Assembly (NCBI GenBank): GCA_964229335.1
Contig: CAXRCZ010000001.1
Location: 742-64,741 of the forward strand
DNA from: Minisyncoccia bacterium
Lineage (GTDB): Bacteria > Patescibacteriota > Minisyncoccia > Phycocordibacterales > UBA918
DNA length: 64,000 nt
Direction: 5' to 3'
Shown: positions 33,471-49,971 of the stretch, piece by piece
Position numbering within the stretch: the first letter of the stretch is position 1
How the letters are laid out: each line of letters opens with the position of its first letter
Position numbers and translations under genes: made by a program
Notes under the pieces: generated by a model
What the model was told of the DNA's origin: nothing
The model's database searches: none
The model's input: the letters and a program-made list of their open reading frames with translations, nothing else

Positions 33471-33495
33471 ACCCTTCCTCGCATATTTGCTCCAA

Positions 33496-33526: not shown

Positions 33527-33535
33527 TTCTCTTGC

Positions 33536-33563: not shown

Positions 33564-33584
33564 GTTGACCACTAAACAAACATT

Positions 33585-33734: not shown

Positions 33735-33763
33735 GAGCTTTTTTGCTATACTCTTGATTGAGT

Positions 33764-34114
33764 ATGTTTGCTACACATCAACGCCTATCTAGGCCAGAGT
33801 TTGAAACTTGTTTTACCTCTGGACGACGCTACCATGGAGAGGTGGCGACGGTAATTTTCTGCCCCTCCCCCACCCTCAAAGTCTCAGCGGTGGTGGGAAA
33901 AAAAGTCAGTAAAAGCGCTGTCACACGCAACTTATTGCGACGCCGGGTCTATGCTCAACTACGAGACTATTTGTTCGACTCACACACCGGAACATATATC
34001 TGTATATTGAAACCAGGAGCTAAAGATTTGAATAAGTCAGCGTTACATGAGACACTCAAGAGCATCTTACATAAAGTAGTTACCAGTCAAAATCAACCAT
34101 CAACCCATGTTTAG
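33764..34114 (+). CDS. rnpA: ribonuclease P protein component
   Basis: It lies directly after rpmH. LSRPEFETCF...KVSKSAVTRNLLRRRVYAQLR contains the RNR motif region of RnpA. Confidence 0.85.
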   Translation: MFATHQRLSRPEFETCFTSGRRYHGEVATVIFCPSPTLKVSAVVGKKVSKSAVTRNLLRRRVYAQLRDYLFDSHTGTYICILKPGAKDLNKSALHETLKSILHKVVTSQNQPSTHV

Positions 34115-34838
34115 TTATATTTGGCACACATTTTTCTTTGATCCGGTCTATAACGGACTAGTATTTTTTATTGATATTGCGCCACGCGGCGATGTCGGTC
34201 TAGCTATAATTGCGACAGTGATTGTAGTTAAGACTATTTTACTTCCTCTCTCAATCAAGGCGGTCAAAACCCAAAAGGTAATGCGGGAAATTGACCCAAA
34301 ACTAAAAGAAATTAAAACCAAACACAAAGACGACCGACAAGCCCAGGCTCAAGCCATGATGGAGGTATACAAAGAGTCTGAAATCAACCCTTTCGCTAGT
34401 GTAGTATTGGCCTTAATTCAAATACCAGTAATCATTGCCCTTTATTTTGCGGTCGCAACCGGCGGAGGAATCCAATTGCCGAGTATTAATGTTGATTTAC
34501 TCTACTCATTTGTACCGAGTCCGGAGCTGGTTAACATGAATTTTTTAGAACTGGTGAATATTCAGGATCGCAGTCTGTTACTGGCAGTGCTGGCAGGAAT
34601 AACTCAATTTCTCCATATCAATATGACGTTGCCCAAGCTTCCGGAACGAAAGCCAGACGAGGCTCCTACTATGAAAGATGACTTTATGCGCAGTATGCAG
34701 CTGCAGATGCGGTACGTTATGCCGGTAATTATTGCGGTGGTGGCGTACGTAATTTCAGCTGCCATCGCGCTCTACTTCCTGGTGAGCAACCTCGTGACAA
34801 TTGCCCAAGAAGTGTTTGTCAGAAAGCACCGTAACTAA
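34107..34838 (+). CDS. yidC: membrane protein insertase YidC (short form)
   Basis: 243 aa. It has the KTILLPLSIK...Q.KMREI.PKLKEIK and INPFASVVLALIQIPVIIALY patterns of YidC/Oxa1. Its start overlaps the rnpA stop. Confidence 0.9.
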   Translation: MFSYIWHTFFFDPVYNGLVFFIDIAPRGDVGLAIIATVIVVKTILLPLSIKAVKTQKVMREIDPKLKEIKTKHKDDRQAQAQAMMEVYKESEINPFASVVLALIQIPVIIALYFAVATGGGIQLPSINVDLLYSFVPSPELVNMNFLELVNIQDRSLLLAVLAGITQFLHINMTLPKLPERKPDEAPTMKDDFMRSMQLQMRYVMPVIIAVVAYVISAAIALYFLVSNLVTIAQEVFVRKHRN

Positions 34839-34840
34839 CG

Positions 34841-35779
34841 CTAATACTTAACACACTTGCGGTCATTAACGTCGCTTCTAGAGATTAGTTTAGTGTCTTT
34901 GAATACACCACCCCACGCCTTGCATAGTATTTCATACACTTCCATATCTGGCTCATCCATTTCTCTGATTCTGATAGCTGCGGCAACTTCATCAGGATTG
35001 TTTTCTGGTAAATTATTTTTATATGCTTCGAATTCATTTGAGAAGTCATCAACTCTCCTCACAATAGTTGGTAATTGACAGCGAAATACACCGTTCTGTG
35101 AAGAAAAATTACCTGCATTATGGAGACAATAATCATTCATAGAATTTTCAGCTCGACTCATACAAACTCTATACAAATTTGCTTGCATAGTACCATTTGC
35201 TCCCGATGACGCTTCATTTTTACAATAGTCACTTGGTCGAGATACTCGAACACTACCTTCCACGCGAGTGTATTCATCAAGTATGTACCTATACTCACTA
35301 GGGGTAAACTCTTCGAGTCCACGTTTGGCTTCTCCAGTACTTCCTACATCTGTACCGTCTTCTCCTGTGCCCCCACCAGTAGTCAGTCCAGAAGATGTGG
35401 GTGGAGCGATTGCTTCAGGTTTTTCAATAGTGTCAGTGAATTTTAGATCAAGTAGGTTAGGATTTATTTCAGTTAGGATCAGCACTGCTCCAGCCACCAG
35501 CAGCAATCCCAACAAAGCGGATTGAATGTCTTTTTTAGCATCACCTTTGGTGCTCACAATATCGGTCGTCATGTATTTGGCACCAGCCACGATAATTTTT
35601 ACAACTGCCAAAAGTCCCGCAATACCGATTGACCAAACGTATAGAGCGTTAATATAGCCAGCGAAAGATCCTGAACCTTCGGTACCACCAGGAACTTGTA
35701 CAAGAGGACTATATTGAGCTCCTACAAACATAGGAGCTGTTAGGATGAGTATCGCAAAAGTGAATAAGAGTGTTCGCAT
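34841..35779 (-). CDS. VirB2/TrbC-like T4SS pilin module fused to a Cys-rich C-terminal domain
   Basis: A signal peptide (LILTAPMFVGAQ) is followed by two hydrophobic helices (YINALYVWSIGIAGLLAVVKIIVAGAKY and ALLGLLLVAGAVLILTEI), as in TrbC/VirB2-type pilins. A Gly/Thr linker and a roughly 170-aa domain with several Cys residues follow. Confidence 0.5.
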   Translation of the reverse strand: MRTLLFTFAILILTAPMFVGAQYSPLVQVPGGTEGSGSFAGYINALYVWSIGIAGLLAVVKIIVAGAKYMTTDIVSTKGDAKKDIQSALLGLLLVAGAVLILTEINPNLLDLKFTDTIEKPEAIAPPTSSGLTTGGGTGEDGTDVGSTGEAKRGLEEFTPSEYRYILDEYTRVEGSVRVSRPSDYCKNEASSGANGTMQANLYRVCMSRAENSMNDYCLHNAGNFSSQNGVFRCQLPTIVRRVDDFSNEFEAYKNNLPENNPDEVAAAIRIREMDEPDMEVYEILCKAWGGVFKDTKLISRSDVNDRKCVKY

Positions 35780-35783
35780 ATGG

Positions 35784-36989
35784 TTATAGTAGCAAATCAG
35801 AGGAGTCTAGTTGGTAGAGCCATAGACTTTGATCGGTTTTGTTTATAAAGTAAAAGCGAGACTCGCTGGTATTCAGATTTGGTTCTGTGACATCAACATC
35901 TCTCCCGGCTAATTCAGCTGGTGCAACTAGCTGTCGAGTTCCGGCAGAATCAAGATCAATTTCCCAAATTGTATCGTTTAATACAGTCTCTCCTCGGTAC
36001 CAGCTATCAGGCAGGGTGCTCTCTTGTGAATAATCATTTCCGCCGCAGATTGCAATGGTGGTGCCGAGTGCACATTTTTCGGCCAATGTAGTGAGTGCCA
36101 AACTGCGGCGCAATTGTCCATCAAATAGATATGTATTCAACTCCTGCTCTTGTGTGACACTATATATTACATTAGCTCCATTTCCGGTGGCTGATAAGCC
36201 AAAGCCAGACACCGGCAGACGATACCGGCTGCCATCTACATACTCATACAAATAGCCAACCAGGTCAGTAGTTGGCGCTGGAAATATCAAAGTTCGGCCC
36301 TCGTTCCAATCTATTACAGCTTGTGAAAATGGGGCCGAAAACATGCTGTTCGTTGTATCGCGTTCTAGATCATATACCCTACTCTCCACAATAGGTGGTG
36401 TAGAAATACTAAAGAAAATTCTATTTAACCCAAACTCGAATTCAATAACACCGCTCGCTATTGCACGACTGGTAGGTTCTTGTGTATCAAGATTGATTAG
36501 ATACAGGGTGCTGTTTTCTCTATAATCAGAACGTACAACCGCGTAACGTCCATCCGATGATATATCGGCAGCAGTGGCTCTGGGGATAGTGATGTTCGAT
36601 AAACGCTCCTCCTCCCCGGTTGACAGATTAATGGTATATACATGTCCGGTGCCAGCTTCGACATAATAAACAAACGGGGTAATTTCTGTCTGGGTAGTTG
36701 TGGCGCTGGCAAAAGCGGTGGTTGAGCCCACTAAGACTTCTTGATGGGCGATGATAGGTGTAGTGGTGAGTTGTTTTAAGGGAGAAGTATCAAACACATC
36801 AACCACATCTTCAGAAGAAATAGCGCCTCCAAATTGTGCCACATCCACCGATTCGTCAGTTGTGTCGCCAAAACCAAATAAGGCAAACCGCTCGTCTCGC
36901 TCCTCAACCGGAGTTATAAACCAATACACGCCAGCAATACCAGCGAGTACGATGATAACTATGCCTATGATGAGTAAAGTCTTTTTCAT
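35784..36989 (-). CDS. anchored extracytoplasmic protein, possibly a beta-propeller; T4SS-like operon member
   Basis: 401 aa with an N-terminal TM segment. Repetitive beta-strand-like segments are present (YAVVRSD, LYLINLD, FYFINKTDQSLWLY). No motif is assigned. Confidence 0.5.
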   Translation of the reverse strand: MKKTLLIIGIVIIVLAGIAGVYWFITPVEERDERFALFGFGDTTDESVDVAQFGGAISSEDVVDVFDTSPLKQLTTTPIIAHQEVLVGSTTAFASATTTQTEITPFVYYVEAGTGHVYTINLSTGEEERLSNITIPRATAADISSDGRYAVVRSDYRENSTLYLINLDTQEPTSRAIASGVIEFEFGLNRIFFSISTPPIVESRVYDLERDTTNSMFSAPFSQAVIDWNEGRTLIFPAPTTDLVGYLYEYVDGSRYRLPVSGFGLSATGNGANVIYSVTQEQELNTYLFDGQLRRSLALTTLAEKCALGTTIAICGGNDYSQESTLPDSWYRGETVLNDTIWEIDLDSAGTRQLVAPAELAGRDVDVTEPNLNTSESRFYFINKTDQSLWLYQLDSSDLLL

Positions 36990-36990
36990 A

Positions 36991-37944
36991 TCAAAAACGT
37001 AAATTCATCTCACCACGAGCACCTTGTAATAAGTTGGTCGTACTCTGCACTCTAAACCCCAGTGACGCGCTTCCATTTATGCCGGTTTTTTGTAAGGTAA
37101 CTTCATATGGGTTGGAATCAGAAATAGCGTCTTCCCCATTGAGATTCCATTGTTTAATTTCTGCAAGATTGAAAGCAGCTGAACTTAAATTGTATGGCTC
37201 AGCTCGGACTGTGAGGGTGTTGCTCAGGAGTGAGTAGGTGGTGAGAGAGGTTGGTAATATGCCATACAGACTGTGCACTTCATAGAAATACACTCTAGGA
37301 TTTTCGTTGAGTAAATACACTGCTTCTTTAGCCACCACGTTACCAGCAAGATTCGTTACTGAAAGCGAGAGTGTGACCCTAGAATCTTGTGGCATTGTAA
37401 AGGAAACAGTATTCCCTCCTCGTATTGGCTGAGGATACAATCTAGTCTGGTTTACTCGCCAGTCATACACCAAATTATCTCTGGCAGCATTAGTCCCCGA
37501 TAATAAAGCCACTACATTTACTTGGCTTCCAGCACTAGGTAAACCGCGGCCTCGATAAAACTCAGGTACATGTGTGAGGGGTTCTATAATCAGGTCAAGA
37601 TACACAGGTGTAACAGATGTTGTAAAGGCTTCAGTTTGACCGTTTGTTTTAGTAACAACTACCCTCAATTCACTTGTAGATCCAGCTTCACCGGCCACAA
37701 AGCTGACTTCTCTACCGGTGCCAATAAAAACAGTATCCAGGTACCAATTTATCTCCGCACCGTTACTACTACTACGGTAGTCATCCAAGTTTGCAACCAC
37801 ACGCTCTTGCGGCGCGGGATGGCTGGGGGTGAGAGAAATGCTAACCTGGGACGCAACACTACCGGTCGTACCAACTTGTGCCCAAACCCATAGCGGGGCA
37901 AGGAATAAAATACTGACTAGAAAAAGTCTCATTCCTATAATCAT
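36991..37944 (-). CDS. secreted beta-rich protein; T4SS-like operon member
   Basis: 317 aa with a signal peptide (LFLAPLWVWAQ). It has repeated beta-sandwich-like segments. Function is unknown. Confidence 0.5.
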   Translation of the reverse strand: MIIGMRLFLVSILFLAPLWVWAQVGTTGSVASQVSISLTPSHPAPQERVVANLDDYRSSSNGAEINWYLDTVFIGTGREVSFVAGEAGSTSELRVVVTKTNGQTEAFTTSVTPVYLDLIIEPLTHVPEFYRGRGLPSAGSQVNVVALLSGTNAARDNLVYDWRVNQTRLYPQPIRGGNTVSFTMPQDSRVTLSLSVTNLAGNVVAKEAVYLLNENPRVYFYEVHSLYGILPTSLTTYSLLSNTLTVRAEPYNLSSAAFNLAEIKQWNLNGEDAISDSNPYEVTLQKTGINGSASLGFRVQSTTNLLQGARGEMNLRF

Positions 37945-37963
37945 AGCAAAAATAGGGCGCTAA

Positions 37964-38812
37964 TTATTCCTTGAATTGGGATAGTGAAACCGACGCAATC
38001 CAAAAAAGTGGTAGTGGTAATAAATTAGCTATTGGAAATATAAAACAAATCCAAGAAAATATAAAAGCAGGAAATTTCATAGTCACCCCATTACCTAAAA
38101 CCGGATTAGAGCCAGTCATGACGTACAACAAAATAAAGATTAACAACAGTCCTCCCCCCAAGAAAAACAATAACATTTGTACAGCGATGGCTAGGGCTAT
38201 GGGTTCTGTTAAGACTTCTGCTGGGATACCTGTGAGTTCGCCAATAGTCTCACCAGCCAGACTGATTGCTTTGTCTAGACCTGCTATAAGTATACTTTCA
38301 GCTTTCAGTTGCTCCCACCATGCCGCCACTGCAAATAAAACTAGGCTAAACAAAGCAATTGGGATTTGTACCCATACATAAAAATTAAGATAGATAGTGC
38401 CAAGAGTAGTTCCTCGAGCTGCTTTGAAAACCTTCACACTCTTTTTCAAAAGTTTTTTCTTGGCGAGTTTTTTCCGATTACGGAGCGCTCTGCGAGCGGT
38501 TTTTCTAGTAACCCCGTTAGTGTTTGGACTTTGATTTTTTTCAGTGTTTTTTCGATTGGTTACTAAGACGTTTCGAACTGGTGTACTTTTATATTTTTTA
38601 GTCCTCATGCCTTTCTCCGAGGGCAGTCCTCTTTCTTGGGGAGGATATTCAACATTGTCATTAGCGGCTCTTCGATCTACCGTTACTTGTCGAACCGGAT
38701 TGAAATAAGAGTAATTATCGTTGGCGGAGCGACGAGTTGGTGAGTTTTGCGCATCCTGCAGACGAATAGGTTCGGCCTCCACATTACGAATTTTTGAGCC
38801 ACGTGGTGCCAT
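37964..38812 (-). CDS. polytopic membrane protein with a long Arg/Lys-rich N-terminal tail; T4SS-like operon member
   Basis: 282 aa. The first roughly 135 residues are basic and low-complexity (RKTARRALRNRKKLAKKKLLKKSVKVFKAARG). About four TM helices follow. Confidence 0.5.
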   Translation of the reverse strand: MAPRGSKIRNVEAEPIRLQDAQNSPTRRSANDNYSYFNPVRQVTVDRRAANDNVEYPPQERGLPSEKGMRTKKYKSTPVRNVLVTNRKNTEKNQSPNTNGVTRKTARRALRNRKKLAKKKLLKKSVKVFKAARGTTLGTIYLNFYVWVQIPIALFSLVLFAVAAWWEQLKAESILIAGLDKAISLAGETIGELTGIPAEVLTEPIALAIAVQMLLFFLGGGLLLIFILLYVMTGSNPVLGNGVTMKFPAFIFSWICFIFPIANLLPLPLFWIASVSLSQFKE

Positions 38813-38826
38813 ATGGGCTTAGTATA

Positions 38827-40638
38827 CTACACCTGTTTTTCCTTCAGTTCGGCGCGAGCTTGTTTGATTTGCAGTAATTGCGATGGGTCAGAGGTAATGA
38901 TTTGGTCTTCGGTGTAGGAAGCTATAATACGAATCGCGACGTGCTTAAGTCCTACAAAGAATATTCCCTCCCCGACGCTTGATTCCAGCAAGAGATACTT
39001 CTCTTCGTCAGTGAGGTTAAAGGTTTTTTGCACATTATCAATCGCAGTTGGTGACTGTTTCATTAACAGCTGGATTGAGGAGTTGGTAATCATTGGTACT
39101 CCGTATGGTGAGCGTAAAAAGTCTTCCACGTCTTGAGTAATAGTCGCAATCCCTAGGTAATACTTACGACCTCGTTTAGCTAGACTGAAGAGGAACGAAG
39201 CAGTGTCTTCTGACTTCATCATCCACCATGCCTCATCAATCACCATCAGGCGCTTGGCCAATCGGCGGCGGATTGAGCTCCAGATAAAGTTGGTAATGAT
39301 GTACATTGCAATCGTTTTGAGTTCATCTTCCATGTCGCGGAGCGAAAACACCACAAATTTTTGGTTGATATCAACATTGGTTGGGCGGTTCATGAATCCT
39401 GACCAGGTGCCAGAAGTGTATTTTTGCAGTCGACTTAACAATGAGTCACTCCCCTCCATACCAGCTAGTACCATTTCAAAATCCGACAGGAGTGGCGGCT
39501 CTTGGTCTGCAAAATCAGAGTCACCCGTGATGTCTTTAAGGGCATATGTTTCCTGAATCGCAATATCCAACAACGTCTCTTCTTCTGGAGTAAGTCCTCC
39601 ATCAGTCGCACTTTTACCATCCCCTAGCATTAGTTTGAATAATCCAACCAACTCAATAATATGCGTCCGTAAAACATCCGCCGGATCTTCATCAGGCTGT
39701 GGGACCGGTAGGTCAAATGGGTTAATGTGGTGGCTCGAAGACAATGAAATATTAAAGAATCTTCCGCCAGTGGTTTCAGCTAGATATTCATACTCCCTCT
39801 CAGGGTCAATCACGATAACTTCGGTGCCGAACATGAGCGAACGTAAAATTTCAAGCTTGAGTCCATATGACTTACCAGCTCCAGATGTAGCGAAAGTTAC
39901 CGAGTTGTAGTTAGTGAGACTGTAGCGGTCAAATAATACTAACGAAGAGTTGTGACGGTTGATACCATACAAAATGCCGGTGTCAGAAGTGAGGTCAAAG
40001 GAGGTAAATGGGAAAAAGCTTGAAAGCGGTGCTGAATTAAATTTGCTGTGCACCAACAAATTGTCGTTACCCAACGGTACAACACTGCGAAAGCCTGGTT
40101 CTTGTTGGAACAAGGCTGGTTTCATGGTGATTAAACGAGAATCAAGAATGCTACGAATATCATTTTCAGTTTTATTGATTGCTTTCTCGTTTTCACCGTA
40201 TATAGCCATGTAAAAACCGACGTCAAAGAGCTTTTCTTCAGCTTGCATAAGTTTGTCACGCAGGTCTTCTAAGTTACGCCACGCTGCTTCTAGTTGTGGG
40301 TCACGCACTTCTCCCCTTTCCTCCTTGAGACTTATCTGACTCTGCACCTCGGCCACTTTCTTCTGGAATTTTTTCAGTGTCTCGCTCGTGTCAATTGGAT
40401 GGATAAATATAGAAACATCAATCTCACGTGCTAGGTTCAATACCGGCTCCAGCCAGCCATCATTTAAATAGCGAGGATATGAGACCGCATAATATACTCG
40501 AGCGTTCACCCCACTGACATTAATACTTTTTGGAGTGATACTAACTGCTGATGGAGCGATAACATCATTGAGCTTCAAGAGTGGTATATCAGGCTTACCG
40601 TCACTCCCGCCATTTTTTGCAAAATCAAATAGTCCCAT
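38827..40638 (-). CDS. virB4: VirB4/TraC-type T4SS ATPase
   Basis: 603 aa. Walker A is FATSGAGKSYG and Walker B is LMVIDEAWWMM. The N-terminal IAPSAVSI...YPRYLNDGWL pattern is typical of Gram-positive-type VirB4 proteins. Confidence 0.85.
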   Translation of the reverse strand: MGLFDFAKNGGSDGKPDIPLLKLNDVIAPSAVSITPKSINVSGVNARVYYAVSYPRYLNDGWLEPVLNLAREIDVSIFIHPIDTSETLKKFQKKVAEVQSQISLKEERGEVRDPQLEAAWRNLEDLRDKLMQAEEKLFDVGFYMAIYGENEKAINKTENDIRSILDSRLITMKPALFQQEPGFRSVVPLGNDNLLVHSKFNSAPLSSFFPFTSFDLTSDTGILYGINRHNSSLVLFDRYSLTNYNSVTFATSGAGKSYGLKLEILRSLMFGTEVIVIDPEREYEYLAETTGGRFFNISLSSSHHINPFDLPVPQPDEDPADVLRTHIIELVGLFKLMLGDGKSATDGGLTPEEETLLDIAIQETYALKDITGDSDFADQEPPLLSDFEMVLAGMEGSDSLLSRLQKYTSGTWSGFMNRPTNVDINQKFVVFSLRDMEDELKTIAMYIITNFIWSSIRRRLAKRLMVIDEAWWMMKSEDTASFLFSLAKRGRKYYLGIATITQDVEDFLRSPYGVPMITNSSIQLLMKQSPTAIDNVQKTFNLTDEEKYLLLESSVGEGIFFVGLKHVAIRIIASYTEDQIITSDPSQLLQIKQARAELKEKQV

Positions 40639-40640
40639 AC

Positions 40641-41279
40641 TTATGAATTATCAACTACTGGCGCCGAGCCAGTCGGATCATTAGGGTTGTAAATGTGATA
40701 AAACAATTCGACCAATTCATCTTGTCCCAACGCAATTGTTCGCACACCAACTCGGGCTAATCCATCAGCTACTAGTGACAAGCGTTGCTCTAACTGACTG
40801 CGATTACGTTCGAAATCCTCATTATCTTTACCACCTTTCATTCGTTTTGGAGCAAACATACTGGTGATACCCCCACCCAAGTTTACTGCGGAGGGTGAGT
40901 AAGAAACCACTACAAAAAAGTTTTTACTCATCACCTCGACGTCGCTGGTGAACGAACGGATAAAGTGCATGTACTCACGCAATTGGATACGCATCAGGTC
41001 ATTATTCTGCTTATCTTCAAGACCACTTAATAACGCAAGGTACGGTTCGATGTTTAGTCGCCGTGACTGCATATAAATCTGCAACGAAAAATCGAGTGTA
41101 TTGAGAAACTGTTGAAATTGCTGCAACACCGCTCGTTGTTCATCGTATGATTTCAGAGCCAGGTTGATAGATGAGGCCAACAATACCATACTCAACCGAC
41201 CGTCTTTTTGAATGACGACATTATCCCGAATATCCTCGACAGTCACAAATGCTTGGGTTTTGGTTTGAGAAGTAGCCAT
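40641..41279 (-). CDS. T4SS-associated protein resembling the N-terminal region of Gram-positive VirB4 ATPases (possible split domain)
   Basis: 212 aa. VEDIRDNVVIQKDGRLSMVLLASSINLALKSYDEQRAVLQQFQQFLNTLDFSLQIYMQS follows a pattern I recall from VirB4 N-termini of conjugative elements. It is separated from virB4 by 2 nt. Confidence 0.45.
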   Translation of the reverse strand: MATSQTKTQAFVTVEDIRDNVVIQKDGRLSMVLLASSINLALKSYDEQRAVLQQFQQFLNTLDFSLQIYMQSRRLNIEPYLALLSGLEDKQNNDLMRIQLREYMHFIRSFTSDVEVMSKNFFVVVSYSPSAVNLGGGITSMFAPKRMKGGKDNEDFERNRSQLEQRLSLVADGLARVGVRTIALGQDELVELFYHIYNPNDPTGSAPVVDNS

Positions 41280-41281
41280 AA

Positions 41282-41692
41282 TTATGAGTCGTGCTGAATC
41301 GCTTTAAGTTCCAATTCTCTCGCGAGAGTTGAAATATTCTTGTTAGTCCGACGAACTACCGGCGCTTCGCTAGGCGCTGCTTTGATAGCTGGGTCTTCTT
41401 TGTACATCACGCGGTCCTCTTTTCGCCACAGATAGAGCTTTGGTGCCAGGGTGTAGTTAAACATAGCCTCCAAGAAATAAGAAAAGGGCCGGTTATTGAT
41501 TGGGTAGAAAGACAGTGCTGCTGCCAAGACTGCTAGTGGTATCCCTAGAATGACAAATAGAATAAACGGCAGCGTAAAAAACATCACCACCGCCATCCCT
41601 ACTCCCCCACTGAGATAGAGAAATTGTCGCCAGGTCAACGGACCAAATATCTTATCTTCCACCTCAATAAATTGTGGCACTTCAAAACGCAT
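41282..41692 (-). CDS. PrgI/VirB3-like small membrane protein
   Basis: 136 aa. MRFEVPQFIEVEDKIFGPLTWRQFLYL followed by two TM helices is the PrgI-family (VirB3-analogue) pattern. Confidence 0.55.
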   Translation of the reverse strand: MRFEVPQFIEVEDKIFGPLTWRQFLYLSGGVGMAVVMFFTLPFILFVILGIPLAVLAAALSFYPINNRPFSYFLEAMFNYTLAPKLYLWRKEDRVMYKEDPAIKAAPSEAPVVRRTNKNISTLARELELKAIQHDS

Positions 41693-41719
41693 ACAGTACC
41701 TACATTATACATGGCAAAG

Positions 41720-42244
41720 TTACTGCCGAGTGTCGCTGTCCCAACGAGCTGACGGGTCTTTTTGCTGCAAAATATCGTCTTGGCTGGATTGATAGCTCGG
41801 CACCTCATTATTCCTGGCAGTCTGCATGTCTTTGGCCATAGTCTCAATACTATCGAGGCTTTCGATACTTTCTTCAATGTCAGAAATATCAGCAGTAAGC
41901 GAAGTATTATTTGCTTGATTCGTTACTAGAGACATCTCCTGCATGCTTACTTCTCTAGCTTTCACTATTTCTTCAGGCAGCGATGCTTCTAAGAAAAACA
42001 CAGCTTCTTCAGCTACTCCGTTACTCACCTGACATTCTGAAGCAATAAAGTCTTTAAGGTCAGCGTCATTGATAAACAACATAATCCACAAGTGATACGC
42101 GTTATCCAGCACGTCAATTTGCTCGGGAGAAAGTTGGTTAGTTTGACCAAAAACCATAGCCGCCTCAGAAACAAAATCACTCTCCACAAAGGCTCGGTAG
42201 CTTGGCTCTAAGATGTTAAGACGTTCTTGAATTGAAGTGTCCAT
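41720..42244 (-). CDS. acidic soluble hypothetical protein; T4SS-like operon member
   Basis: 174-aa ORF, tightly packed between the VirB6-like and VirB3-like genes. No motif is recognised. Confidence 0.45.
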   Translation of the reverse strand: MDTSIQERLNILEPSYRAFVESDFVSEAAMVFGQTNQLSPEQIDVLDNAYHLWIMLFINDADLKDFIASECQVSNGVAEEAVFFLEASLPEEIVKAREVSMQEMSLVTNQANNTSLTADISDIEESIESLDSIETMAKDMQTARNNEVPSYQSSQDDILQQKDPSARWDSDTRQ

Positions 42245-42246
42245 AA

Positions 42247-44652
42247 TTATTTATTATCAGAATTACTGTCAGAAGAATCTTTTTTTGAAGAATCGTCACT
42301 GTCATCAGAATCAGAATTATCCTTCATTGCTTTAGATAGTTTGTCCAAAGCTTGTTTGTCACCAGCTTTTTTATCTGTTTTTAAGAGCGCTTTACCGCTA
42401 CCGTATTTCTTTTTAAAGTCAGCTACATCACGCTGCCGCTCACCCACTCTAGCAGCCAGTTTAGAAGCTGCGACTCCACCCGCGATAGCACCGACTGCTG
42501 GCCCAGCCACAATCGTTCCAGCCGCAATAGCGGCTGTTGAACCAGCCAAGGCAGCTCCTCGTCGCCAATTAACACCCTTTTCTAGAGATTCCATATACGC
42601 AATTTGCTTTTCGTATTTGATGCGAGCGTTTGCTTCTTTCGCAAGGTTTACATAATTGCCTTTATCGTCTTGCCTCAGTGACGTATTAATGTCTTCTAGC
42701 TCTTTATCAAGCACCCTAACATTTTTCTCCAGATCCTTATCGATAGACTCAATTGATTTTTCAAGATTTTCACGCTTATTGCGAAGCGCTTTAAGGGTAT
42801 CGTAATCATTATTCTTCGCCGCCTCTTTCTCAGCTGTTATGGTTTTTCCAAGTTCTTTAGACAGACCGTCACGTTCTCGCGCTACTCCTAGACTTTCCCT
42901 GAGTCTATTTTCTTCCGCCACCAGTATTTTTTGTTGCTCAATCGCTTTCTTTTGTTTTTCTTCTATAGATGTTTTCTGTTCATTGCTCAAATTACTGTCT
43001 CGCAGTTGATTACCGTAAGATTTAATTTGGGCATCATTTGTGCGTAGTTGATTTTGCTTAGCAGTAAGCTCGCTTTTTATTGCGTCCTCACCTTCCTTTA
43101 CAGTTGCATTGACCGCTATAACTTGTTCTTTTTCTTGTTCTTTTGCAGCTTTCTCTTTTTGACGCACTGCGAGCAACTGAGTCGTTTCATCTTCTACCCG
43201 AACGCGGTTTTCTGGAGTGTTAGTATCTGTTGTCCCAATATCTTTCTCGAGCTTATCTCGCTTCTTCTGGCGATCTTTTTCAGCCTTTGAGTACCCGCCT
43301 TTTTTGCCAGTTCCGATACCAGCGGATTTACCAAGACCACCAACTTGCCTCGCATCAAAGCTTTTGCCAGCAACACTTTGTGAACCTCTCAGCATAGCCC
43401 TCCCAAATGCACTACGTGATGCCCTCTCCTTAGCCTTGTCGCTATTGCTATAGGCATACGCAGCTCTTCCTACAGTATTACGTCCTACCATCCCAGCTGT
43501 TCCAAAACTCATTGTGCCAGCCCCTTTCTTAAGACTTCGACCAGCCCACTGTGAAGTCTTTTTACCCATACTCACTGCATGTCCAGCGCCATCTGCCCCT
43601 AGCTTATTGGCTGCTACCAAAGAAGCAATCATAAACACACAAGCTACGATAAAGAACGGCACGAGGGTGGCATCGGTAGCTCCAGAAGCATTCGCTACAT
43701 CGGAACCATAATTCGCCGAAATGGACGTGGTTTGCTTACCCGCATCTCCCCCTTTTAATAAGCTGCTCTGCCGCATAGTGTCGAGTATTCGAAGAGAAAA
43801 ATAAAGAAACAAGAAATAGATAGGAGCAAAAAAAGCGCGTGACAGAAACATTTTCCAGTATTTTGAAACCGTATCTCCTAGTGGCGGAAGTATCCAACCA
43901 ATAAACATCAATGGCGAAATAATCATGAATAAGCAAAGCACCACAAATCGAATCATTAGAAGCAGTCCTCCTGCTGCAAACACAAAAGCGGCCACTAAGA
44001 ACATCACGCCGTTTGCCACAATATAAGCAATAGAATAGGGTTGACCATCATTGGATTGGTTTTGACCACTTTGCCAGTCCCAAGCCTTGCTAATTCCCAG
44101 CCGATTCATTATGTCACCTGCCATATTGACTTGGTACGGAGCAATAGTATCGCTACCGGGTGAGACTGAATCGTCCTTTAAGAAACCGTTCACCGCAATT
44201 TCAGTAGCTAATTGATTTGAGACATCGACTGCAAATTTGGTGATGAAGAGGCTAAAGTTGACCAGTAGTGCTGCCAGAATTAGGTTGACTAACCAACGGC
44301 GAGTATTGGAGTCATCACTATTCAGGATCATCTTAAAGCCGATGTAGACGAGACCGAAGATGAAAAACAAATTCATAAAGTCCCGGATGGTGTACCACAC
44401 ACTATTAACTGCGACTCCAACAGTGCCGTTAAAGAGGTTTCCAAAACCAATGACAAAGTAATTGATGCCTGTGTCGAGAATGAGACCTCCGAGCCACAAG
44501 GCAATACCGGTAATTGAGACAACTAAAGTGAAAAGAGCATTGGAGAGAAAGGTGGTGAGATCGCTGTTCGCGTAAGCAAAATATGGAACCAACCACAGCA
44601 AAAGCGCCGCCGTACCGAGAAGATAGTACTTGTGCTGGCGCAGTGTCTTCAT
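42247..44652 (-). CDS. VirB6/TrbL-like polytopic membrane protein with a long charged coiled-coil C-terminal extension
   Basis: 801 aa. The first roughly 360 aa contain a signal-like segment plus multiple TM helices. A Lys/Glu-rich heptad-like region follows, then a Gly/Ala-rich hydrophobic segment and a Ser/Asp tail. Confidence 0.6.
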   Translation of the reverse strand: MKTLRQHKYYLLGTAALLLWLVPYFAYANSDLTTFLSNALFTLVVSITGIALWLGGLILDTGINYFVIGFGNLFNGTVGVAVNSVWYTIRDFMNLFFIFGLVYIGFKMILNSDDSNTRRWLVNLILAALLVNFSLFITKFAVDVSNQLATEIAVNGFLKDDSVSPGSDTIAPYQVNMAGDIMNRLGISKAWDWQSGQNQSNDGQPYSIAYIVANGVMFLVAAFVFAAGGLLLMIRFVVLCLFMIISPLMFIGWILPPLGDTVSKYWKMFLSRAFFAPIYFLFLYFSLRILDTMRQSSLLKGGDAGKQTTSISANYGSDVANASGATDATLVPFFIVACVFMIASLVAANKLGADGAGHAVSMGKKTSQWAGRSLKKGAGTMSFGTAGMVGRNTVGRAAYAYSNSDKAKERASRSAFGRAMLRGSQSVAGKSFDARQVGGLGKSAGIGTGKKGGYSKAEKDRQKKRDKLEKDIGTTDTNTPENRVRVEDETTQLLAVRQKEKAAKEQEKEQVIAVNATVKEGEDAIKSELTAKQNQLRTNDAQIKSYGNQLRDSNLSNEQKTSIEEKQKKAIEQQKILVAEENRLRESLGVARERDGLSKELGKTITAEKEAAKNNDYDTLKALRNKRENLEKSIESIDKDLEKNVRVLDKELEDINTSLRQDDKGNYVNLAKEANARIKYEKQIAYMESLEKGVNWRRGAALAGSTAAIAAGTIVAGPAVGAIAGGVAASKLAARVGERQRDVADFKKKYGSGKALLKTDKKAGDKQALDKLSKAMKDNSDSDDSDDSSKKDSSDSNSDNK

Positions 44653-44657
44653 AATGT

Positions 44658-46049
44658 TTATAGGGTGGAGAGAATATTATCCCACTCACTCTCAAGCGCT
44701 CTTATTACCCCTTCTGAGTACAGGCCACTCAGTTCTTGTGCTTCTGCGAGGATTGCTGCCTGCTCTATTACTGCATCATATCGCTCCTCGTCACTCTCAG
44801 CGTTTTCAAATGCTGCTTCTCGCTCGTTATACAAAGTTAATAATCTTTGCAGCTCAGGAATAGTACGCAGTGTGTTATCGAGTATCTCATCTGCTCGGCT
44901 TACCGCTGTAACAGCACGTGATCGTTCGTCCGGAGTCGCCTCAGGATTATTGGATGCTTCAACGAGAGGGTCGCGATAGTTGCGAGCCAATAAACGAGCT
45001 TCAGTTTGTGTATCCAGCAAATCAGAAATCGTCGTTGATCTTCCGGTGCTGTTATTGAGCTGTTCACGACTTTCTTGGCGTAGAGCATCTGTATATGAAG
45101 TGCCCCCGCTCGCATATCCTGTATTAGCAGACAACCCCAGCAGTCCGGTTGCTCCCGTTAAGGCTTGATTGGCAATCTGTCCAATCAGGGCTCCAATAAT
45201 CTCATTGATTTCATCAGCAGCAATGAGTTGGTCTCGTCCAACGCCAAGTGTTTCATTGATTTGGTCTGCGATAACATTGCCAGGAGTAGAAATGACACAT
45301 TGTTCTTTTGGCCCACTAGGTCCCTCGATAGTTTCACAGATTTTACTAGAGAGAAAGCCGCTTCCCCAGCTTAATTTTTCTTCTTCGAGACCAATTATCT
45401 CTGCAAGCCGACGATCAAGCTGAACTTGAGCCTGAGAATATTGACCGTACGGCAAGTACTCATCTGGACGAGAAGTAATCACTAGCCAATCATCCCAATT
45501 GTCGCCAGTAAAGGTGCCCTCAAGGATTCCGGATATGTTCTCGGTAACTTCAGAAAGTCGACAACCGTCATATGGTCGATCTTCACGCGCTCTTTGGTAG
45601 TAAGAGGTCAAGGCTATTTGGATGTCGAGTCTGAAATCAGAACACAAGTAAGAGCCAATTTCGCCCAAGCTGGCAATGTACTCACCAGCTGCTTCATCAG
45701 CTGCATTAAGTAGGAATCGGTCTAAGTCTTGTACAAAAGCCGGACTACCTTGGAAGCCGGAGTTAATCCAGTCCACCAAACTCGAGGTCATATTAGAAAT
45801 GATTGATTTACCTAAAGCAAACGCAATCGCATCAAGAGTGAGTTCTTTTCCGGTTTGAGCGCCTGTAGTGCCAATAATTGTTGTGAGAGCGGCTACTGCT
45901 GCGACATCAATAACTGGAAATTGTGCTTCCGCTTCTGGCACATTGCTGGTTGGTAGTTGTGGTACATATACTATTACGAATGCGAACATTACAAAAACTA
46001 GTCCAGTCAGGGTTTTCTTTAGGTAATTGAAGAAACAGTCCATACTCAA
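44658..46049 (-). CDS. membrane-anchored extracytoplasmic protein; T4SS-like operon member
   Basis: 463 aa with an N-terminal TM segment (LVFVMFAFVIVYV). Function is unknown. It overlaps the upstream gene by 4 nt. Confidence 0.5.
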   Translation of the reverse strand: MSMDCFFNYLKKTLTGLVFVMFAFVIVYVPQLPTSNVPEAEAQFPVIDVAAVAALTTIIGTTGAQTGKELTLDAIAFALGKSIISNMTSSLVDWINSGFQGSPAFVQDLDRFLLNAADEAAGEYIASLGEIGSYLCSDFRLDIQIALTSYYQRAREDRPYDGCRLSEVTENISGILEGTFTGDNWDDWLVITSRPDEYLPYGQYSQAQVQLDRRLAEIIGLEEEKLSWGSGFLSSKICETIEGPSGPKEQCVISTPGNVIADQINETLGVGRDQLIAADEINEIIGALIGQIANQALTGATGLLGLSANTGYASGGTSYTDALRQESREQLNNSTGRSTTISDLLDTQTEARLLARNYRDPLVEASNNPEATPDERSRAVTAVSRADEILDNTLRTIPELQRLLTLYNEREAAFENAESDEERYDAVIEQAAILAEAQELSGLYSEGVIRALESEWDNILSTL

Positions 46050-46930
46050 AGTTGATTATTCGGGTTGAAGACACCAAATATGGTGGCGGTGTCATTTTTG
46101 GTAAACAGGTTGCTGTACGGCTCAATGCTGTAGTACATATTTTCTAGCGCATAGCGTAGTCCTAACGCGTCCTCTTGATAACGACGGATGCGCAGAATAG
46201 CTACGGTTGGATCCGTAGAACTCTCAGTCATCGCCTCGATATCGACAGCTAGTGAATTGTATGTATTAATAAGATCGAGGTGCTGCTTTACAAATATTCT
46301 TGGTACAGGTATTTCCAGACTTTCATCGCGCATGCCACTGTATGCTGCTGCAATATCTTCCAAATCACTCACCCGCTCTGCTTGTTGGAGACGAACCACG
46401 TCATAAAGAATTGAAATTTCGTCATCGCTATCGGCGACGTTGTTTCGTACCATTATCCCTGCCATTGCATTGGCGTAGTTGCGGATGTCATCATCAGTCC
46501 AATTATCGAGTATAGAAATATTGGGTATATCGTAGAGCTTAACAGCGGTCTGCTCTGCTAAAAGATTAGCGGTATCTTCGATCACTTCCGCATCAGTCCG
46601 TCCAAATGGCTGGCTGTTGCGGGCACTGATGATATTTTGGAAAAAATTAACTCCTAGTTGTCCGGTCAATGTTTCAGGAGGTTCGTAGGAAGCGCCTGGA
46701 GTACTTACTGCGATGGGTTCCGCTACCACATAGCTATCACGCCAATCCTCAATCCCGTTATTGTCAGTATCGGTAACATTTATTGCTGTTCGAACTGGTG
46801 CTTGTGTAACCAGTGATGCTGTCTGGGTCGGCGGTGGAGTATTAAGGCTTCCAACAGTGTACGCCAATCCCACCAACGCCAGTCCAACTATAAAAGCGCC
46901 AACAATTCGCTTATTTGAATTGCGTATCAT
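46046..46930 (-). CDS. membrane-anchored protein, first gene of the T4SS-like operon
   Basis: 294 aa with an N-terminal TM segment (IVGAFIVGLALVGLAY). Function is unknown. A VirB8-type role is only a positional guess. Confidence 0.5.
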   Translation of the reverse strand: MIRNSNKRIVGAFIVGLALVGLAYTVGSLNTPPPTQTASLVTQAPVRTAINVTDTDNNGIEDWRDSYVVAEPIAVSTPGASYEPPETLTGQLGVNFFQNIISARNSQPFGRTDAEVIEDTANLLAEQTAVKLYDIPNISILDNWTDDDIRNYANAMAGIMVRNNVADSDDEISILYDVVRLQQAERVSDLEDIAAAYSGMRDESLEIPVPRIFVKQHLDLINTYNSLAVDIEAMTESSTDPTVAILRIRRYQEDALGLRYALENMYYSIEPYSNLFTKNDTATIFGVFNPNNQL

Positions 46931-47026
46931 ACATATGTAAGTATAGCAGCGGCTGGTTGGGATATCTCACAACTGTTCACAGCAAAATAATTGTGGATTA
47001 TATCTGTACAAACTGTGAATACAGTA

Positions 47027-47842
47027 CTATTTGTGTGGATAGGTTGGGGACAGAAAATGACTTGCTAAACAACCCCAAGTATCAAGATTGAGATCTTCAG
47101 CTCTAACTTTATCCCCTACCGCACAGGCCGCGAAGGCTGCCTCGATTAGAGATGCGGGATACTGTTGCCGCAAATTACGCTGTAATTGTTTGCGCTTTTG
47201 ACCAAAAGCGAGATGGAGCAGTGCAAAAAAATCACTGGATGAGTAGGACAGCAAGCGTGTTTTGGAAATATCACTCACCTTTAAAATTGCCGAATCTACC
47301 TTAGGGGGCGGGTTAAAATGCCCGCGCTTAACCGTGGTTACATAGGTTGGAGTGCCAAATACTTTGACTGACAGAGAAAGTAACGACTCTTTTTCTGCTC
47401 GAGCAATGCGGTGAACAAGCTCTTTTTGCATCAAAAAAACTAATTTACTCGGCTGAATCTCATTATCGAGCAGTGTCCGCAAGAGAAGGCCTGATAGGTA
47501 GTAAGGAATATTGGCAACGACTTTAAATGCTTGATTCTCAAGCCCTAACGCTGCCACATCAAGCCGGCGGGCATCTTGGGAATGAAGAATTAGTGACTCG
47601 TGGGCAATTTCATCAGTAAAAGTTTCTTCTAGGGCAGTAATGGCACGTTCGTCAGCCTCAACTGCGATTACTTTTGCTCCTTGCGAAAGGAGCTCTTTAG
47701 TCAATTGTCCAGTACCAGGTCCAATCTCGAGCACAAGTTCGCCTGGCTTTATATCAGCGGCAGCACATAGTTTTTTGGGAATGACGTCACTAGTGAGAAA
47801 GTTCTGCCCCAGAGATTTTTTTGGTGTAAATGGCATTGGCAT
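47027..47842 (-). CDS. rsmA: 16S rRNA (adenine1518/1519-N6)-dimethyltransferase RsmA/KsgA
   Basis: KKSLGQNFL, VLEIGPGTGQLT and VANIPYYLS are canonical KsgA motifs. Confidence 0.9.
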   Translation of the reverse strand: MPMPFTPKKSLGQNFLTSDVIPKKLCAAADIKPGELVLEIGPGTGQLTKELLSQGAKVIAVEADERAITALEETFTDEIAHESLILHSQDARRLDVAALGLENQAFKVVANIPYYLSGLLLRTLLDNEIQPSKLVFLMQKELVHRIARAEKESLLSLSVKVFGTPTYVTTVKRGHFNPPPKVDSAILKVSDISKTRLLSYSSSDFFALLHLAFGQKRKQLQRNLRQQYPASLIEAAFAACAVGDKVRAEDLNLDTWGCLASHFLSPTYPHK

Positions 47843-47900
47843 ACCTCTAGACTAGATAATCATCTATAAAATAGCAACTGCAGCCATTGCTATTGGTCCT

Positions 47901-47984
47901 GCCGCGCCTATTTCTCACACGCTCTGATGTTCTCGATGCTTCAATAGGCATAGAGTCCTCGCGGATGTTCAAAATAGGCGCGGC
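47901..47984. repeat. G+C-rich stem-closed intergenic element (copy C, related to copies A and B)
   Basis: GCCGCGCCTATTT (47901-47913) pairs perfectly with AAATAGGCGCGGC (47972-47984) around 58 nt. CGCCTATTTCTC resembles CGCCTATTTTCTC of copy B (10673-10685). Confidence 0.4.
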
Positions 47985-48006
47985 CGACGCCCTGTACTTG
48001 GTATCG

Positions 48007-49971
48007 CTAATCTAAATAAATAGTTGTCTCATACCCAGAACTATTGTCAGCTGGTGTATCGACATCGACGTGCTCGGGTTTGATGTCATTTAAGAAAGAT
48101 GAGGGCAGATTCACTCGCTGGCTACCAAAAATAGTACGCAGGTGGGCGTAGGACAACCAGATTCTTTTCTGGGCACGAGTTAAGGCCACATAGAACAAGC
48201 GGCGCTCTTCTTCCTGATCAGTTTTCGACTCATCCAGTCGCTCATGTGGAAACAACCCTTCTTCTAAGCCAGTGATAAACACGTACGCAAACTCCAACCC
48301 TTTGGCTGCGTGAATTGTCATCAAGCGAACGGCGTTTTGTTCCTCTTTGTTTTTGATTTCATCTTGATCACTCTGTAAGGCAGCAGTTTCAAGCAGTTGC
48401 TCCACTGCGAGTGCTGGCTCTATGTCTCCATATCGAGTAGCCAAGGTTACTAATTCCCGCAAGTTTTCCAGTCGCTCAAGTGACTCATCAGTCTTCTCTT
48501 CTTTATAAGCTGCCTCAATACCACTCCGACGCATGATGAATTTGATGGTCTCAGCCAAGGGCTTGCTAGTAGCTGTCGCTGCGATGTCGGTCATTATTTC
48601 GTCAAACACCGCCACCTTTTTGGCAGCTCCAGCATTGAGGTCGGCTCTGTTGCCTTCTATCACTTTGAGCATAGTGACTTTTCCAATACCGCGTGTCGGG
48701 GTATTAATGATGCGAGCCAAATCAGCCGTACTACCTGGATTGAGTGCTAGACGCAGGTACGACAACACGTCTTTGACTTCTTTTCGTTCGAAGAATTTCG
48801 TGCCCAGTAGTTGATACGGCACTTCTTGAGAGAGAAAGGCTTCTTCCAAAGCTCTTGATTGGAAGTTTGTTCGATACAGTACCGCAATCTCGGTTGGTTC
48901 TACTCCTTCAGCGATTAAGGTCTTGGCGGTTTCGGCTACGTAATTTGCCTCATCGCCTCCAGTCATTGCTGGGTAGAGGGTGATTTTTTCACCGGGTTGG
49001 TTTTGGGTAAAAACAGTTTTTTCAACTCGGTTTTGGTTTTTAGTAATGATGTCGTTTGAAACCGCGATAATAGTCTGGGTCGAACGATAGTTTTCTTCTA
49101 ACAAAATTGTTTTAGCATTGGGAAAATGCCGCTCAAAGTGCAGTACATTTTTTATATCAGCGCCACGCCAAGAGTAGATATTCTGGTCGATGTCCCCTAC
49201 CGCACATATATTGGTAGCCTCTCCGACTAGTAGCTCAGCAATTTTAAACTGCACTCGGTTGGTGTCTTGGTACTCATCTATATGTAAATAGCGATATCTC
49301 TTTTGCAATGTCTCTCGCACAGTCTGATTGTTTTCCAGCAGTCGCAGTGTCTTCGCTAAGAGGTCATCAAAGTCCAGCGCTTGCTCGGTGTCCATAATGG
49401 TTTCGTACTTTGACCATACTTCGGCTACTACTTGTTCAAAATAACTTTGAGCGTTGTCTTGATACTCGACTTGGGTGATTGCGTCACCCTTCGCTCGTGA
49501 TATCTGTCCTAATATCTTGCGCGGTTCAAATTCTTTTGGGTTGTAGTCGGCTTTTTCCAAAGCTCGCTTGATAGCCTTGGTGCTATCAGAACGATCGTGA
49601 ATAACAAAGTTGCGTAGTAGACCCGCTGATTCGTGAAATTCTCTGAGCAATCGGACTCCTAGGGAGTGAAACGTGGTGATGACGGGCTGGCTATCGATGG
49701 CTGCTCGTGCACTGGGCGGATACTGTTGGAGTAACTGGTTGGCACGCTCTCGCATTTCAGCCGCTGCCTTATTGGTAAAAGTAACTGCCAATATATTGTG
49801 CGGGGCTACGCCCTGGTGAACGAGGTGAACAATTCGGTGGGTGATTACTCGCGTTTTACCAGAACCAGCTCCAGCCAAAACTAGTACCGGGCCTTCGGTA
49901 GTCACCACTGCTTCTTTCTGTGCGTTATTAAGTGAGCTGAGGTAGTCCGGAGTCGTTGTCATGGCTGACAC
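48007..49971 (-). CDS. pcrA: ATP-dependent DNA helicase PcrA/UvrD (SF1)
   Basis: LVLAGAGSGKTRVI, TFTNKAAAEM, YLHIDEYQDTN, VGDIDQNIYSWRGA and the C-terminal VALTRA motif are all present. Confidence 0.9.
   Translation of the reverse strand: MSAMTTTPDYLSSLNNAQKEAVVTTEGPVLVLAGAGSGKTRVITHRIVHLVHQGVAPHNILAVTFTNKAAAEMRERANQLLQQYPPSARAAIDSQPVITTFHSLGVRLLREFHESAGLLRNFVIHDRSDSTKAIKRALEKADYNPKEFEPRKILGQISRAKGDAITQVEYQDNAQSYFEQVVAEVWSKYETIMDTEQALDFDDLLAKTLRLLENNQTVRETLQKRYRYLHIDEYQDTNRVQFKIAELLVGEATNICAVGDIDQNIYSWRGADIKNVLHFERHFPNAKTILLEENYRSTQTIIAVSNDIITKNQNRVEKTVFTQNQPGEKITLYPAMTGGDEANYVAETAKTLIAEGVEPTEIAVLYRTNFQSRALEEAFLSQEVPYQLLGTKFFERKEVKDVLSYLRLALNPGSTADLARIINTPTRGIGKVTMLKVIEGNRADLNAGAAKKVAVFDEIMTDIAATATSKPLAETIKFIMRRSGIEAAYKEEKTDESLERLENLRELVTLATRYGDIEPALAVEQLLETAALQSDQDEIKNKEEQNAVRLMTIHAAKGLEFAYVFITGLEEGLFPHERLDESKTDQEEERRLFYVALTRAQKRIWLSYAHLRTIFGSQRVNLPSSFLNDIKPEHVDVDTPADNSSGYETTIYLD

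Follow-up and report, generated by a model that had tools for sequence, protein, structure and literature searches.

A chromosomal type IV secretion system of the Patescibacteria clade beside dnaA in a Minisyncoccia genome

Type IV secretion systems (T4SSs) of the Patescibacteria (CPR, for Candidate Phyla Radiation) have been described in two recent studies (Wang et al. 2023, PMC10633639; Quinonero-Coronel et al. 2025, PMC12102498), which report TrsD, PrgI, VirB6 and VirB2-like pilins together with a missing relaxase, and a review has also discussed this machine as a highly interesting new member of the T4SS superfamily (PMC12857230). In the Paceibacteria, the T4SS lies near dnaA, dnaN, rnpA and ksgA (PMC12102498), and an origin-adjacent cluster is already known from nearly all Patescibacteria. 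In Southlakia epibionticum, a member of the Saccharimonadia, the T4SS genes and the pilins were found by transposon sequencing to be essential for epibiotic growth, independently of ComEC (PMC10633639, PMC12857230). The subject of this analysis is an eleven-gene locus at positions 34841-46930 of a 64,000-nucleotide stretch of DNA from a Minisyncoccia bacterium (contig CAXRCZ010000001.1, positions 742 to 64,741; hereafter the window). A preliminary description had presented such loci as largely unresolved, a framing that has been overtaken by the publication of the same system in both of the studies named above. The locus is a rediscovery of that known system with modest added detail. Judged from its sequence, it is almost certainly the Patescibacteria-clade T4SS, carried on the chromosome and passed on by vertical descent.

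The locus shares with the Patescibacteria-clade T4SS a VirB4 of MPF_FATA ancestry, TrsD, PrgI/VirB3, VirB6, a VirB2-like pilin encoded near virB4, the lack of a relaxase, and the position near dnaA, dnaN, rnpA and ksgA (PMC12102498). Nothing essential sets it apart, and it is best regarded as an instance of that system. What can be added concerns the neighbors that match no profile, which were left unassigned in that study; here, five of them (g02, g03, g08, g10 and g11 in Table 1) are conserved across the class, two with recognizable folds. In the Southlakia cluster (SEML1_0006-0019; PMC10633639), the VirB4 and PrgI genes are likewise near neighbors, large VirB6-like membrane proteins are encoded further along, the pilins belong to PF18895, no recognizable relaxase or coupling protein is present, and the locus-tag numbers place the genes close to the origin. 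The two loci differ in that Southlakia has an opposite-strand array of six pilins, all short and divergent, whereas a single pilin with a long variable C-terminal extension is found here, and in that peptidase and lysozyme homologues follow virB4 directly in Southlakia, a place taken here by g04, g03 and g02, with no hydrolase in the operon.

More distantly, the locus resembles the MPF_FATA T4SSs of monoderm bacteria (Prg of pCF10, Trs of pGO1/pSK41 and the Clostridioides difficile CTn with CD1110), with which it shares the VirB4 family, PrgI, TrsD-like and VirB6-like proteins and the absence of an outer-membrane core complex. Unlike these systems, it encodes no relaxase, type IV coupling protein (T4CP), VirB1-like hydrolase or recognizable VirB8-like protein; it has a VirB2-like pilin, which they do not, and it is chromosomal and fixed, whereas the conjugative systems are carried on mobile elements. 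ComB of Helicobacter pylori and the archaeal Ced system (CedB) also run on a VirB4-type motor and, like the present locus, have no relaxase or locus-borne coupling protein; import is a documented function of such machines (PMC11665869). However, ComB has a diderm VirB7-10 core, of which no counterpart was found among the products of the locus in Pfam or NCBIfam searches, and CedB is hardly matched at all (36.6 bits, with the cut-off at 700).

Eleven minus-strand open reading frames (ORFs), numbered g01 to g11 from the 3′ end of the operon, fill the locus with intergenic gaps of 1-27 nt (Table 1). The dense packing claimed in the preliminary description is borne out as to strand and gaps of at most 27 nt, but the 4-nt overlap of g11 and g10 requires a TTG start for g10. 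From the ATG at 46043, two codons downstream of that TTG and the start of the public protein P0121 (461 aa), a 2-nt gap to g11 results. The operon, on the chromosome of a member of the Paceibacteria (Parcubacteria), encodes a T4SS of Gram-positive type and MPF_FATA descent; where four recognizable core parts had been counted, there are five, namely VirB4, a TrsD-like protein, PrgI/VirB3, an extended VirB6 and a VirB2-like pilin.

Table 1. Features of the T4SS locus and cell-wall hydrolase genes elsewhere in the window (window coordinates)
Feature	Coordinates	Strand	Description
g11	46046..46930	-	294-aa bitopic protein; first gene of the operon; orphan family
g10	44658..46049	-	461-463 aa; membrane-anchored; Cys-containing domain and C-terminal helical bundle; orphan family
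g09	42247..44652	-	801-aa extended VirB6/TrbL-like polytopic membrane protein
g08	41720..42244	-	174-aa acidic protein without transmembrane segment
g07	41282..41692	-	Small membrane protein, PrgI/VirB3-like
g06	40641..41279	-	TrsD-like; free-standing homologue of the VirB4 N-terminal domain
g05	38827..40638	-	603-aa VirB4 ATPase without N-terminal domain
g04	37964..38812	-	282 aa; basic N-terminal part; about four C-terminal transmembrane segments
g03	36991..37944	-	Signal peptide; secreted; immunoglobulin-like beta-sandwich domains
g02	35784..36989	-	N-terminal membrane anchor; TolB-like beta-propeller; two invariant Cys
g01	34841..35779	-	VirB2-like T4SS pilin; 3′ end of the operon
Putative operon control region	46931..47042	-	DnaA-box-like motifs; extended -10-like element
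LysM-M23 peptidase	50250-51296	+	DipM/NlpD-like; diverges from uvrD; lies 3.3 kb upstream of the T4SS genes
Hydrolase_2 cell-wall hydrolase	12549-13865		

The assignment of g05 as the VirB4 ATPase, already made in the preliminary description, is upheld by a match to the CD1110-family VirB4 model of NCBIfam (345 bits against a cut-off of 325), by PDB entry 4AG5 (E=1.2e-38) and by Pfam P-loop_TraG (1e-25), and in the translated sequence both Walker motifs, A (TSGAGKS) and B (MVIDEAWW), are intact. The protein is 83-88% identical to thousands of Parcubacteria proteins. More than 8000 relatives were found, of which the best 120 listed are 82-88% identical, and the organism names among these 120 are all Parcubacteria, Kaiserbacteria, Nomurabacteria or Pacebacteria. 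From the CD1110-family match, the best among curated models, g05 is assigned to the Gram-positive MPF_FATA type, and its named homologues, exclusively patescibacterial, point to the Patescibacteria clade nested in that type. It aligns to positions 186-732 of the 752 in the CD1110-family model and lacks the N-terminal part; g06, encoded directly upstream, matches positions 2-120 of the same model, as well as positions 100-235 of VirB4_plasma, the mycoplasma VirB4 (E=1e-9), and the TrsD/TraD family (2e-5). The VirB4 motor thus appears to be split, with g06 supplying the part that g05 is without. Although g06 had been listed among the unknowns and nothing was found when it alone was searched against the PDB, its TrsD-like match to the N-terminal part of VirB4 models removes it from that list, and TrsD has already been described in Patescibacteria (PMC12102498).

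The two remaining membrane components of the core also stand as first proposed. The PrgI/VirB3-like protein g07 matches Pfam PrgI (PF12666) at 44.7 bits (cut-off 27; E=2.1e-11), and g06 and g07 lie immediately upstream of virB4. The VirB6/TrbL-like assignment of g09 comes from its orthologues, 5 of 26 of which match Pfam TrbL/VirB6 (PF04610; best E=2e-8); g09 itself has no Pfam match and a weak NCBIfam match to pLS20_p028 (1e-4), and a profile search of PDB sequences returned coiled-coil noise only. A transmembrane (TM) scan gave about six TM segments within the first 350 residues, after which come a long hydrophilic stretch rich in Lys and Glu and another hydrophobic segment near residue 710.

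The pilin, g01, is the only pilin gene of the window, and its proposed identity is supported by a family hidden Markov model (HMM) built from 28 orthologues, which gives it 113 bits, and by its conserved signal peptide and two-helix architecture. Its score against Pfam T4SS_pilin (PF18895) is 23.9 bits, just under the 26.6-bit cut-off, and NCBIfam gave a match to the Mbov_0395 pilin-like family at 4e-3. With 69 orthologues, which range from 122 to 615 aa in total length, g01 has in common a Sec signal peptide and a pilin domain of two helices (residues ~37-105 in g01) that closes with a conserved INP.L motif. The pilin domain is conserved, and the C-terminal extension of about 200 aa is Cys-rich and hypervariable between species, a detail that is new to this analysis. 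By analogy with the solved VirB2/TraA pili, the termini of which face outward, this extension would decorate the surface of the pilus. Two pilin genes are present in 8 of 69 loci, in contrast to the Saccharimonadia with their arrays of short pilins.

The conservation of the locus was traced through 576 related stretches confirmed in GTDB species genomes, from which 80 species-level loci (VirB4 identity 66-88%) were used, the genes of the window being mapped by iterated HMM search. In the 44 loci whose flanks reach at least 9 kb to either side of virB4 (full loci), the gene order is collinear without exception between ksgA and yidC-rnpA-dnaA-dnaN, with variation only in the order of g01 and g02. 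The core genes g06 and g07 occur in all 44, as do g02, g03 and yidC/rnpA/dnaA; g09 and g01 occur in 43, g10 and g08 in 42, g11 in 40 and ksgA in 37. The conservation of the unknown genes, on which the preliminary description had staked its proposal, was found for g02, g03, g08, g10 and g11, each in 40-44 of the 44, and conflicts with its own designation of these genes as lineage-specific, since they are shared across the class. This class-wide conservation of accessory genes is likewise new to this analysis.

In the window, the operon is followed by yidC (34107-34838), convergent and 2 nt away, and by rnpA, dnaA (31456-32997) and dnaN (30058-31152), and is preceded by ksgA, a UvrD/PcrA helicase, a LysM-M23 peptidase and comM. 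The same position and order in all 44 full loci, between ksgA/uvrD and yidC-rnpA-dnaA-dnaN, mark the T4SS as a fixed chromosomal feature, as had been proposed, and not an integrative and conjugative element (ICE); its GC content (0.42-0.46) is the same as that of its flanks. Among these loci, which had been chosen by VirB4 similarity, the median identities to the window proteins in the closer and farther groups were 79.5 and 68.2% for VirB4, 82 and 57% for DnaA, 65 and 42.5% for YidC, and 57 and 36.5% for DnaN, whereas the extracytoplasmic T4SS proteins are only 23-38% identical. These medians point to strong purifying selection on the motor. In the farther group, VirB4 (68%) ranks above DnaA, YidC and DnaN, with surface components at 23-29%.

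A Pfam scan of all non-overlapping ORFs of at least 150 aa in the 64-kb window found no relaxase, VirD4/TcpA coupling protein or VirB11, in agreement with the preliminary description, and neither att-like flanking repeats nor an adjacent tRNA bound the locus. The only recombinase, a XerC/D-type tyrosine recombinase (56374-57327), is encoded about 9.4 kb upstream. Pfam and NCBIfam revealed no VirB1-like hydrolase domain in any operon product, but LysM-M23 and Hydrolase_2 proteins are encoded elsewhere in the window. In at least 13 related loci, a LysM-M23 gene has the same place. The gene was considered as a substitute for VirB1 and rejected, as it is divergently oriented and its product resembles a DipM/NlpD-type division enzyme. 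Taken together, the VirB4 family, the synteny and the lack of DNA-processing genes support the proposal of a chromosomal, non-conjugative derivative of a Gram-positive-type T4SS.

Seven of the products had been described as anchored or secreted proteins specific to the lineage. For g06 and g08 this fails, as a Kyte-Doolittle scan revealed no hydrophobic segment in either, and both are probably cytoplasmic. Two of the former unknowns have recognizable folds. The profile of g02 matches TolB in the PDB (E=6e-7), with weak TolB matches in NCBIfam, and residues 4-22 form a TM segment, by which it is predicted to be a membrane-anchored TolB-like beta-propeller. The profile of g03 matches the immunoglobulin (Ig)-like domains of T4 Hoc in the PDB (E=7e-6), and its orthologues match BiPBP_C (10 of 29), Ig_3 (4) and also PKD, which indicates a secreted Ig-like protein.

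The other four, g04, g08, g10 and g11, remain orphan families. A comparison of seven family alignments with hhalign gave no sign of hidden paralogy, the only matches being between signal peptides and TM segments. The g04 gene is confined to the relatives that rank highest in VirB4 identity, with detection in 28 of 80 loci and in 14 of the 44 full ones. The protein has no match in Pfam or NCBIfam and a net charge of +21 over its whole length; its strongly basic N-terminal 140 residues are probably disordered, and a role in binding nucleic acids is conceivable. The g08 protein (net charge -24) gave nothing significant in either database and was found in relatives only by iterated search; its conserved N-terminal domain of about 90 aa is probably helical, and the variable acidic and Pro-rich tail that follows is probably disordered.

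The g10 family is very large and diverse, with 5392 representative clusters (50% identity) at E<=1e-3. Its alignment contains a WINSGFxGxPxF motif and four invariant Cys in a conserved Cys-containing domain. A Pfam search with 23 members returned no informative domain, only single stray matches, and one Beta_helix domain was all that ten long relatives showed. The AlphaFold2 model of g10 (predicted local distance difference test, pLDDT, 67.9) is confident for residues 330-460 only and falls below a pLDDT of 50 across most of residues 36-180, in the conserved domain; Foldseek gave no match below E=0.048 for this model, in which the conserved domain is poorly modeled.

An N-terminal TM segment (residues 9-27) and a TSP3-like Ca-binding loop at residues 54-65 (DTDNNGIEDWRD) are found in g11. 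For g11 of the window, neither Pfam nor NCBIfam gave a match, and TSP3_bac, in two of 29 family members, was the sole notable match to Pfam. Its AlphaFold2 model (pLDDT 77.5, predicted template modeling score 0.61, residues 146-290 above a pLDDT of 90) predicts an all-alpha bundle, which would be extracytoplasmic, and Foldseek against the PDB returned generic four-helix bundles only (best E=0.2). The idea that g11 might be the missing VirB8 was dropped, given the all-alpha model and the lack of a match to the NTF2 fold (Foldseek E>=0.2). Searches of PDB sequences with the g10 and g11 profiles gave coiled-coil noise only.

Upstream of g11, three DnaA-box-like motifs in the same orientation stand at -112, -92 and -70 from the ATG, spaced by 20 and 22 nt. 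An extended -10-like element, TGCTATACT, lies 18 nt before the g11 ATG and therefore implies a very short leader; a consensus scan for promoters and terminators did not rise above shuffle expectation. With at most one mismatch allowed, 16 of 49 loci (33%) have the motif TTATCCACA in the 150 nt upstream of g11, compared with 72% upstream of dnaA, 59% upstream of dnaN and 0-9% upstream of twelve other genes, and 14 of the 17 motifs upstream of g11 are in the orientation of the gene. The 19 DnaA-box-like motifs observed there compare with a mean of 2.0 in 500 shuffles that kept mononucleotide content. Across the whole window, the count of DnaA boxes is not above chance, and only the positional enrichment is meaningful. 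This enrichment upstream of the first T4SS gene, of which no mention was found in the literature searched, is the third detail new to this analysis, and suggests a DnaA-linked control of the operon that would go beyond the gene-dosage idea of PMC12102498.

A further cluster of DnaA boxes is found in the dnaA-dnaN spacer (31300-31418). If oriC is located at dnaA/dnaN, the T4SS operon, ksgA and uvrD (all within 30058-49971) would run toward the origin, head-on to replication; the orientation of the operon relative to dnaA/dnaN is identical in all 44 full loci. GC skew was rejected as a means of placing oriC within 64 kb, as it follows gene orientation.

The other non-overlapping ORFs of at least 150 aa in the window are housekeeping genes (PolA, RuvABC, TyrRS, PBP1, Mur ligase and ClpB), encode parts of a type IV pilus, or have no family match. 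A PilB-type T2SSE ATPase with an MshEN domain is encoded at 21534-23294 (+) and PilM at 6027-7112 (-), and the genome therefore has a type IV pilus besides the T4SS; two small ORFs downstream of pilM without a family match (4962-6025, -) could be PilN/O-like. ARAGORN called a tRNA-Pro(GGG) of 97 nt at 16920-17016 (+), with the anticodon at position 38, that scores below the Rfam tRNA gathering score and may be intron-containing, atypical or a false call. Two long ORFs (53369-55168, -, 599 aa; 61316-63427, -, 703 aa) match nothing in Pfam or NCBIfam. A glucose/sorbosone dehydrogenase-family protein (3361-4476, -) and a dihydroorotate-dehydrogenase-like protein (9569-10426, -) are encoded in a genome expected to be metabolically reduced.

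The explanation that best accounts for the locus, and probably the correct one, is a chromosomal Patescibacteria T4SS that acts as a host-contacting, non-conjugative pilus conduit. Its membrane machine derives from the conjugation systems of monoderm bacteria (MPF_FATA), and the split VirB4 (g06 and g05), VirB3 (g07) and VirB6 (g09) would build a pilus or tube from Sec-exported g01, the variable C-terminal domain of which would sit on the outside. The propeller (g02), the Ig-like protein (g03) and the helical proteins may form or decorate a wall-crossing section in contact with the host cell, and the DnaA boxes upstream of g11 may link transcription to the replication initiator. Of all this, the identities of the components, the operon-like packing, the fixed chromosomal place beside dnaA, the intact VirB4 ATPase and the lack of a relaxase, T4CP or VirB11 within the 64 kb are shown, and the rest is proposed. 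That the machine is non-conjugative is very likely; that it forms a pilus-bearing conduit in contact with a host is somewhat less secure, though still favored. As to direction, the import of host macromolecules, especially nucleic acids, is preferred tentatively, because the locus has no T4CP, because the motor shows housekeeping-like conservation in a phylum without nucleotide synthesis, and because host RNA uptake has recently been reported for a cultured Minisyncoccota strain, in which tubular structures were suggested to be T4SS pili (bioRxiv 10.64898/2026.06.21.733656). In methanogenic enrichment cultures, T4SS pilins are among the most highly expressed Patescibacteria genes of unknown function (PMC10936435).

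Several points weigh against this explanation. The direction of transport and the substrate have not been established even in the model species (PMC11665869), and the function proposed for the present locus is inferred. By known standards the architecture of the channel is incomplete, as no VirB8-like or VirB1-like component was found in the operon, g10 having been judged for VirB8 from a low-confidence model; the VirB6 assignment of g09 is only transitive, and the pilin falls below the Pfam gathering threshold. VirD4-like matches occur in most Patescibacteria genomes, mostly far from virB4 (PMC12102498), and a T4CP may be encoded elsewhere in this genome. The identity comparison is biased by the choice of loci, the shuffled controls for the DnaA boxes preserved mononucleotide content only, and at most one mismatch the motif is present in only a third of the loci.

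Nearly as plausible as import, though on its own account doubtful, is the export of effectors, in which the T4SS, like those of pathogens, would carry toxins or host-manipulating proteins out of the epibiont and into or onto its host and recruit its substrates without a dedicated coupling protein, as do Bordetella Ptl or Brucella VirB. Exporters without a T4CP exist (PMC12102498), effector delivery has been speculated upon (PMC11665869, PMC10633639), and the fast-evolving surface parts fit an arms race between the partners. However, in the window the operon has no linked candidate effector, chaperone or gene bearing a secretion signal, housekeeping genes flank it in all 44 full loci, and the conservation of VirB4, which equals or exceeds that of DnaA, suggests a core physiological role and not an accessory of virulence.

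A more elaborate form of the import reading is rather improbable as a whole. It would make the T4SS a DnaA-gated housekeeping feeding tube, with a hypervariable host-recognition pilus and a split VirB4, through which imported host RNA or DNA supplies nucleotides. Its wall-spanning part would consist of g02, g03, g10 and g11, as families seen nowhere else, and transcription of the operon would be coupled to the initiation of replication through the boxes at -70 to -112.

Adhesion alone, by a VirB2-type pilus that attaches the cell through a variable adhesive domain while nothing passes through, is improbable. The Cys-rich, hypervariable pilin extension would suit such a function, Ig-like and beta-propeller surface proteins have typical adhesin folds, and T4SS pilins were grouped with adhesion-related proteins in PMC10936435; yet type IV pili, parts of which are encoded in the window, already provide adhesion and motility in Saccharibacteria (PMC12857230), and 43 of the 44 full loci retain the channel protein, an extended VirB6. 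That the locus is a remnant or cryptic ICE, the relaxase, T4CP and boundaries of which lie outside the window or are too divergent, is highly improbable and was rejected on synteny (44 of 44 species-level loci collinear from ksgA to yidC-rnpA-dnaA), for although its VirB4 is of a conjugation-type family (CD1110), a tyrosine recombinase is encoded upstream and the genome is seen only within 64 kb, there is no GC anomaly and there are no flanking att repeats or tRNA, the recombinase has the XerC/D domain pair and is encoded among housekeeping genes, and relaxases occur in only 103 of 3035 Patescibacteria genomes (PMC12102498).

The T4SS of the Patescibacteria, which the single species tested needs for its epibiotic growth, is perhaps the only pilus-building T4SS of monoderm bacteria. 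The window adds no new system, but gives a clean example from the Paceibacteria, with a defined list of parts and a testable regulatory lead. Among these parts are five class-wide accessory genes, two with assigned folds (g02 and g03) and three without (g08, g10 and g11), and the list could guide structural work (cryo-ET, AF-Multimer) as well as genetics, the latter once a pair of a Paceibacteria species and its host is open to manipulation.

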